Sequence record: DRR723986_4177
Reading direction: 5' to 3' (one strand)
Length of the DNA: 64,000 nt
The notes beneath the pieces were generated by a model that was given only the letters and a program-made list of their open reading frames with translations, was not told where the DNA came from and ran no database searches. Positions 51,485 through 52,189 of this stretch are shown here, one piece after another. Position 1 is the first letter of the stretch, and each line of letters starts with the position of its first letter. Made by a program: the position numbers and the translations under genes.

Positions 51485-52189
51485 ATGACCAAAATGACTG
51501 AAAACATGCCATCTAAGAGGCTGTCAACCATGCGGGCGCTGGTAACACAGGCAGCAGACTTTATGGGTCCGGCTACCGTTAAGCATTTCAGGCGTGAAGG
51601 TGCTGAGGTTATTGCAAGCGACGATATTTTGACGGACCAGACTGCCGTGCAGTCTGTTATTGAAAAAGCTGGAACCATAGACATTTTGGTCGTCAACCTT
51701 GCCAGTGAAAACCTTTACGGAAAAACCGTCGACCAACTAGATGACGTTGAATTTGCGCACGCATTTGAGGTGATGGTCTACCCCTTGCACCGTTTGGTGC
51801 GCGCGGTTGCCCCGCAAATGAAGCAGCGCGGGCGCGGCAAAATTATTGTGTATGGCAGTGCTGCGCCGCTCAAACCCATGGCACGACTAGCCGCATATTC
51901 TGCCGCTCGCGGGGCGCAAATTTCCTACGTGAAGGCGGTGGGCGTCGAGCTTGCACGGCATAATATTCAGTGCAATTTGATTGCACAAAATTGGGTTGAA
52001 AACCCAGCCTATTACCCTGAAGAGATGCAAGAAAACCCGAAGTTTCAGGCAAATTTAGCCCGCGAAGTGCCACTGGGCAGACTTGCGCGACCGGAAGAAG
52101 ACACCGCCCTTGCAGTTTTCTTGGCGTCTAACGAAAGCGACTTTTTTGTTGGGCAAGCAATTCCCTTCAGCGGCGGCTGGGCCAGTTAA
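51485..52189 (+). CDS. Halohydrin dehalogenase (SDR fold, HheB/HheD-like)
   Basis: T-x4-F-x-G (TQAADFMG) replaces the Rossmann TGxxxGxG; S-x12-Y-x3-R triad; IAQNWVENPAYYP; GAGGAG SD. Confidence 0.85.
   Translation: MTKMTENMPSKRLSTMRALVTQAADFMGPATVKHFRREGAEVIASDDILTDQTAVQSVIEKAGTIDILVVNLASENLYGKTVDQLDDVEFAHAFEVMVYPLHRLVRAVAPQMKQRGRGKIIVYGSAAPLKPMARLAAYSAARGAQISYVKAVGVELARHNIQCNLIAQNWVENPAYYPEEMQENPKFQANLAREVPLGRLARPEEDTALAVFLASNESDFFVGQAIPFSGGWAS

Follow-up and report, generated by a model that had tools for sequence, protein, structure and literature searches.

Halohydrin dehalogenases (HHDHs) are used industrially for chiral epoxides, beta-substituted alcohols and, recently, oxetanes. A pair of sequence motifs tells them from SDRs. 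According to the available sections of PMC4989007 and PMC11976700, T-x4-F/Y-x-G lines the nucleophile/halide pocket of HHDHs and S-x12-Y-x3-R is their catalytic triad; SDRs have T-G/A-x3-G/A-x-G and S-x10-14-Y-x3-K instead. Mining with this motif pair yielded 37 new HHDH genes, activity was found in 19 of 19 cases tested, and by 2016 the D subtype was numbered up to HheD38 (PMC4989007, available sections). Two D-type structures have been assigned to their enzymes: 7b73 is HheD2 (PMC9629495), and 8xxb is a variant of Thauera aminoaromatica HheD8, whose S-Y-R triad is essential as judged by mutagenesis (PMC11782660).

The gene described here is located in the window, i.e. the whole stretch of 64,000 nucleotides that was analysed (sequence record DRR723986_4177). 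Translation of the window revealed an open reading frame at 51485-52189 (+), stop codon included, that has no internal stops and encodes 234 aa. On the basis of the open frame, the matches to HheD2, HheB and HheD8 and a Foldseek search, it is listed as the coding sequence of a B/D-type HHDH homologue. A Shine-Dalgarno-like GAGGAG is found at 51472..51477 (+), 7 nt 5' of the ATG. The ORF list contains an alternative longer frame with a TTG start at 51470. Since the Shine-Dalgarno site precedes the ATG at 51485, this ATG is the likelier start. Both HHDH motifs were detected as regex matches. Motif 1 reads TQAADFMG (residues 21-28, 51545..51568, +) and stands where SDRs have their Gly-rich NAD(P) motif. 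Motif 2, S125-x12-Y138-x3-R142 (51857..51910, +), corresponds to the catalytic triad with Arg for the SDR Lys. A script placed the codons of Ser125, Tyr138 and Arg142 at 51857, 51896 and 51908, so that the motif positions given in the original prediction are exact. Its claim that the two motifs separate HHDHs from NAD(P)-dependent SDRs matches the published definition in the available sections of PMC4989007 and PMC11976700. A Gly-rich T-G/A-x3-G/A-x-G pattern is missing from the first 60 residues, and the 234-aa protein has no catalytic Y-x3-K, Y138-x3-R142 being present instead. The motifs are more than chance, because this SDR-fold protein matches HheD2 (E = 8e-67) and HheB (1e-64), and because both are found in the same register in all 80 related loci.

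The best matches among PDB sequences were HheD2 (7b73, 228 bits, alignment spanning residues 7-233), HheB (4zd6, 221 bits), an HheB triple mutant (5b12, 217 bits) and HheD8-M3 (8xxb, 204 bits). After these four, the scores drop to 112 bits for 6a41, described as 'dehalogenase', followed by L-KDF dehydrogenases (~97 bits), HheA (~96), HheG (81) and HheC (72). The best protein described as a dehydrogenase reaches 97 bits; the top HHDH structures score about twice that. An AF2 model computed from an alignment of 27 relatives has a pLDDT of 83.9 and a pTM of 0.84, with lower confidence (pLDDT 59-73) at residues ~121-140 and 171-200, regions to which the loops for substrate and halide belong. The SDR-superfamily (Rossmann-type) fold is supported by both this model and the Pfam match to adh_short_C2. 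A Foldseek search with the model returned HheD2, HheB and HheD8 at TM 0.87-0.89 and 48-52% identity; NAD-dependent SDRs come next with 22-31% identity, the L-KDF 4-dehydrogenases among them with 28-30%. Identity to any characterised HHDH amounts to only ~50%.

Relatives of the protein are numerous. The 120 best of 8000 scored candidates are 59-87% identical to it, and the closest named homologue among them is from Kordiimonas aquimaris (78% by BLASTP, 73% by tblastn). Counting the query, 116 of 121 close homologues have both motifs, and the remaining five have only motif 2. All 27 aligned relatives have Thr21, Gly28 and the triad of motif 2, and altogether 68 columns are invariant in this alignment. 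A library of representatives at 50% identity contains 59 clusters with a match at E <= 1e-30. Of the 150 representatives listed, many of which are fragments, 51 have both motifs, 34 motif 2 only, 14 motif 1 only, 17 YxxxK and 34 none. Two conserved peptides were used to scan 185,579 species genomes; at least 295 of them encode relatives, and 80 of these 295 stretches were kept as related loci. The hosts are alpha- and gammaproteobacteria of marine or saline origin, apart from a few MAGs with other assignments. In comparison with the loci L001-L010, pN is 0.11-0.18 and pS 0.67-0.89; dN/dS is 0.075 for the single pair with unsaturated synonymous sites. Plasmid carriage is confined to one match at E <= 1e-30 in 72,556 plasmid records. 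This sole plasmid relative is located on the conjugative megaplasmid pSA2 of Novosphingobium resinovorum (L081, 4823-6696), is 46% identical and annotated as 'SDR family oxidoreductase'. Its motif 1 reads SMAELYMG, with Ser at the Thr position, and its S-x12-Y-x3-R is complete. A gene of the epoxide hydrolase family ends 11 nt before its start, which is the classical arrangement of the two genes. A literature search found no paper joining halohydrin dehalogenase with Kordiimonas.

The gene very probably encodes an active cofactor-independent HHDH (haloalcohol hydrogen-halide lyase) of the HheB/HheD lineage on the chromosome of a marine alphaproteobacterium of the Kordiimonadaceae. This reading, put forward in the original prediction, is supported by both motifs and by the three closest solved structures, which all belong to experimentally characterised HHDHs; from these sequence data we infer catalytic activity. 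As HHDHs form homotetramers (dimers of dimers), the protein is presumably a tetramer. The following mechanism can be proposed from work on HheC, HheB and HheD (PMC4989007 and PMC11976700, available sections; PMC11782660). The substrate hydroxyl would be bound by Ser125 and Tyr138. Tyr138, its pKa lowered by Arg142, would take the hydroxyl proton, and the oxyanion would displace the vicinal halide to yield an epoxide. The halide would leave into the motif 1 pocket (T21...F26.G28), which is the NAD(P) site in SDRs. In the reverse direction, azide, cyanide, nitrite or similar anions bound in this pocket could open the epoxide. No cofactor would take part in the reaction.

Automatic annotation has the protein as an ordinary NAD(P)-dependent SDR. 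Pfam assigns only adh_short_C2 (115 bits, 3.9e-33) and adh_short (80 bits), and 200 SDR-type NCBIfam models match at E <= 0.01. All 19 named proteins among the 120 listed homologues are called either SDR family (NAD(P)-dependent) oxidoreductase or 2-keto-3-deoxy-L-fuconate dehydrogenase, the latter also being the JGI label for relatives. None of the 19 is named HHDH. Structures of L-KDF 4-dehydrogenases are indeed among the matches (97 bits, 28-30% identity). The forecast of an automatic SDR annotation thus proved correct. Nevertheless, the assignment itself is very improbable. TQAADFMG replaces TGxxxGxG, and Arg replaces the catalytic Lys. Both Pfam models align only from residue 52 on and leave the first 51 residues unaligned; therefore, the dinucleotide-binding N-terminal part of the SDR profile is unmatched. 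No NCBIfam model reaches its cut-off with the 234-aa protein: All hits remain far below, the best with 108 bits versus a cut-off of 215. HHDH structures, in turn, score twice any dehydrogenase. It is even harder to believe that the gene is a decaying or non-functional SDR remnant which retains the motifs by descent only. Nothing specific speaks for such a remnant apart from a consensus scan that found no sigma-70-like promoter in the gap 5' of the gene. The intact frame with its Shine-Dalgarno site, a pN far below pS, the 68 invariant columns in 27 relatives with the triad among them, and a model that is confident over most of the fold all argue against it. The HHDH reading is preferred here, and it means that the family is systematically mislabelled: None of its 19 named relatives carries the name HHDH, and there is no NCBIfam model for the family.

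The original prediction had also noted a mixture of HheB-like and HheD-like features. This impression is real, as the strings it pointed to can be read in the alignments with HheB (GKIVVYGSAA and FLASDESDFIVG) and HheD2 (YSAARGAQ and AQNFVDNPTYFP). In the PDB search, the protein itself is close to all three enzymes, with HheD2 (228 bits) slightly ahead of HheB (221) and HheD8 (204). A tree of 67 rows was calculated by a quick method. Besides the target, it contained 17 homologues out of the 120, 41 representatives and, as outgroup, 8 YxxxK SDRs. The 41 representatives were 200-290 aa long and had both motifs, fragments and representatives without the motifs being excluded. The tree was built without the HheA-G reference enzymes, and its clades were labelled indirectly via seven further PDB searches. 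In this tree, 26 of 64 inner branches are unsupported. The target falls into a six-row clade with support 99. This belongs to an 18-row clade (SH-aLRT 97), which also comprises sequences from Hoeflea, Nitratireductor and Pseudomonadales MAGs and lies inside a 43-row HheB/HheD-like clade (support 98). The sister clade comprises 16 rows; P0265, the only member of it that was tested, has 6a41 as its nearest match. P0123 and P0156, which among the representatives stand closest to HheD2 and HheD8, are D-like and form a clade separate from the 18-row clade of the target. P0123 matches HheD2/HheD8 with 261/251 bits and HheB with 189 bits; P0156 matches HheD2/HheD8 with 208/161 bits, and HheB is not among its matches listed at E <= 1e-40. 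Two clade-mates of the target, P0091 (HheD2/HheD8 244/241 bits, HheB 267 bits) and P0036 (223/222 bits and 233 bits, respectively), prefer HheB, whereas the target slightly prefers HheD2. This places the target at the B/D boundary, and at the sequence level its assignment to subtype B or D appears ambiguous.

The gene order in the window is RTX protease, HHDH, UbiX, DgcA-like racemase (DgcA-type N-acetyl-D-Glu racemase), tdh and kbl. The last three genes are located downstream beyond UbiX, and the RTX gene lies upstream on the same strand, separated from the HHDH gene by a 49-nt gap. This order was found only in 10 Kordiimonadaceae loci of the 80 related loci. The RTX and racemase genes are present in all 10 of these loci, UbiX occurs in 9 of them, and tdh and kbl are each found in 8. 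The RTX gene (49003-51435, +) codes for an 810-aa serralysin-like protein with the zinc-protease motif HELGHALGLEH and seven stretches of RTX calcium-binding repeats, which scores below every NCBIfam cut-off. In all 10 Kordiimonadaceae loci, it is situated directly 5' of the HHDH gene (47-77% identity). The UbiX flavin prenyltransferase gene (52265-52858, +; 266 bits versus a cut-off of 188) adjoins the HHDH gene. A UbiD-family decarboxylase is encoded at 3672-5198 (+), 47 kb from the UbiX gene, which means that the two partners are separated. An HHDH-ubiX operon was considered and rejected. In 6 of the 10 Kordiimonadaceae loci (L001-L005, L008), the gap between both genes is ~1 kb, and in L001, the one locus that was read, it is occupied by an oppositely oriented ORF of 293 aa. 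With a GC content of 0.515, the HHDH gene is like its neighbours. Synteny, matching GC content and a pN much lower than pS indicate that the gene is vertically inherited and under purifying selection in the Kordiimonadaceae. The analysis thus shows the fold, both motifs, close homology to three characterised HHDHs, the loss of the Gly-rich motif, purifying selection and vertical inheritance.

Outside the Kordiimonadaceae, the neighbours vary by clade, and any one neighbour family is shared by at most 22 of 81 loci. A tblastn search (E <= 1e-5) up to 6 kb from the gene detected neither an epoxide hydrolase nor a haloalkane dehalogenase homologue, be it in the 80 related loci or in the window. 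Hence, the genomic context lends no support to a haloalcohol-degradation pathway. The lack of a nearby epoxide hydrolase agrees with the remark in the available sections of a review that only two known HHDH genes share an operon with an epoxide hydrolase gene (PMC4989007). In the gammaproteobacterial loci L041, L048, L051, L052, L067, L069 and L071, an HpaB-family protein (flavin monooxygenase or 4-hydroxybutyryl-CoA dehydratase fold) is encoded 38-78 nt downstream on the same strand (at about 6700-8200). A glutathione S-transferase gene abuts the HHDH gene in L069 and L080, and a glyoxalase/VOC-fold gene is located 0.3-0.7 kb from it in L058, L065, L068, L072, L073, L075 and L079. These three types of neighbours may be clues to epoxide handling in the gammaproteobacterial clade. 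The window contains further features. Two frames, 57366-58775 (+, 469 aa) and 59053-59742 (+, 229 aa), have no Pfam or NCBIfam match, and the GC content of the first one is 0.38 versus ~0.51 in its neighbours; this region may be a small foreign island. Furthermore, the window has two gamma-glutamyltranspeptidase genes (23167-24921, -, and 46879-48813, -) and two carbon-nitrogen hydrolase genes (25090-26070, +, and 61670-62596, -).

An RNA hairpin was predicted by folding energy in the 49-nt gap after the RTX gene (51432..51486, +). It has an energy of -17.6 kcal/mol (z = -3.1), and 2 of 200 shuffled sequences fold as well. Its inner stem pairs 51445-51451 with 51468-51474 (CTCAAAG/CTTTGAG) and overlaps part of the Shine-Dalgarno site. 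The same stem is found in L003, and L002 has CTCGAAG/CTTCGAG, a compensatory change; L001 and L004-L010 lack the stem. The predicted hairpin may be a terminator or an element of translational control. The gap at 52180-52270 folds no better than shuffled sequences (z = 0.07). A consensus scan yielded counts close to the shuffled background, 9 promoter-like sites versus 8.4 +/- 2.7 in shuffled sequence and 18 terminator-like sites versus 10.9 +/- 3.4, with no site adjoining the gene on its own strand.

The most likely natural role of the HHDH would be to turn over or detoxify halohydrins or epoxides that arise naturally in the sea. It is improbable that the protein has the HHDH fold and triad but catalyses a physiological reaction other than haloalcohol dehalogenation, which would then be a side activity in vitro. 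Such a reaction might be a natural epoxide opening with a cellular anion or another lyase chemistry. It would be in line with the purifying selection on the gene and its position at one chromosomal site among housekeeping genes (tdh, kbl, ubiX) in the Kordiimonadaceae, and with the missing epoxide hydrolase partner within 6 kb. The available sections of the review, which mention just two HHDH-epoxide hydrolase operons, regard other physiological functions as possible (PMC4989007), and D-type enzymes also take gamma-haloalcohols and oxetanes (PMC11782660). However, positive evidence for another substrate is lacking, and the distant relative on pSA2 follows an epoxide hydrolase gene at 11 nt. 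In addition, the window encodes a 299-aa haloalkane dehalogenase at 227-1126 (+; NF002043, 366.9 bits versus a cut-off of 265; Pfam Abhydrolase_1), which fits organohalogen metabolism. Located ~50 kb upstream of the HHDH gene, it is too far away for a shared operon but still relevant to organohalogen metabolism. Haloalkane dehalogenase followed by HHDH is a known route for dihaloalkanes, and such a route is said to operate on 1,2-dibromoethane in Mycobacterium sp. GP1.

Starting from haloalcohol dehalogenation as the preferred reaction, one can speculate further. The HHDH could be a vertically inherited core enzyme of marine Kordiimonadaceae rather than a recent xenobiotic gene, and with the haloalkane dehalogenase (227-1126) as its partner it could make up a dispersed pathway that leads natural marine organohalogens from haloalkane via haloalcohol to epoxide. 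This broader proposal is tentative and on balance unlikely. If true, it would provide a physiological role for the HheB/HheD lineage and make the hairpin over the ribosome-binding site a candidate control element. The gene itself is not a surprising find, because it is recognised by the published mining rule and has relatives in at least 295 species genomes. The rule has reportedly been in print since 2014, going by the date of the reference cited for it. The target is a fairly ordinary addition to the known HHDH family, one among hundreds of unlabelled relatives. Being ~50% identical to HheB, HheD2 and HheD8 and situated at the B/D boundary, it is a reasonable candidate for a screening panel. 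Its stable position in the Kordiimonadaceae and the co-resident haloalkane dehalogenase make a tractable system for the question of the natural role.

Among the known systems, HheD2 (7b73) is the best match of the target in both sequence and structure (TM 0.87, 51-52% identity). Its source is presumably the marine gammaproteobacterium HTCC2207. Both proteins have the same type of motif 1 (T-Q-A-D-T-F-M-G in HheD2) and the same spacing within the triad, and the segment YSAARGAQ and the loop AQN.V.NP.Y.PEE are common to them. They differ at about half of their positions, and HheD2 has GKILVMGSAS, whereas the target has the HheB-like GKIIVYGSAA. HheB (4zd6, 5b12), the B-type halohydrin hydrogen-halide lyase of Corynebacterium sp. 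N-1074, is 50% identical (TM 0.88-0.89) and has GKI.VYGSAA and FLAS.ESDF.VG in common with the target. In its motif 1 (TNADAYMG), the aromatic residue is Tyr, but Phe in the target. In addition, its YSTARFAQ and AQHWTQNKEYFW correspond to HheD-like segments of the target. HheB was obtained from a soil enrichment on haloalcohols, as stated in the available sections of PMC4989007; the target gene, in contrast, resides on a marine chromosome without catabolic context. HheD8 from T. aminoaromatica S2 (8xxb, variant M3; 204 bits, 48% identity, TM 0.88) is farther from the target than HheD2 and HheB. The best-studied HHDH, HheC from Agrobacterium radiobacter AD1 (1pwx), shares the fold, the two motifs and the proposed mechanism, but matches with only 72 bits. 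According to the available sections of PMC4989007 and PMC11976700, HheC is extended at its C-terminus by a segment with Trp249, and its gene shares an operon with an epoxide hydrolase gene. The target has neither; it ends with GGWAS, and no epoxide hydrolase gene was detected within 6 kb. Classical SDRs such as L-2-keto-3-deoxyfuconate 4-dehydrogenase (8y11) and FabG have the Rossmann-type fold and the equivalent Ser and Tyr in common with the target. They are only 22-31% identical and differ from it by the Gly-rich cofactor motif and the catalytic Lys.
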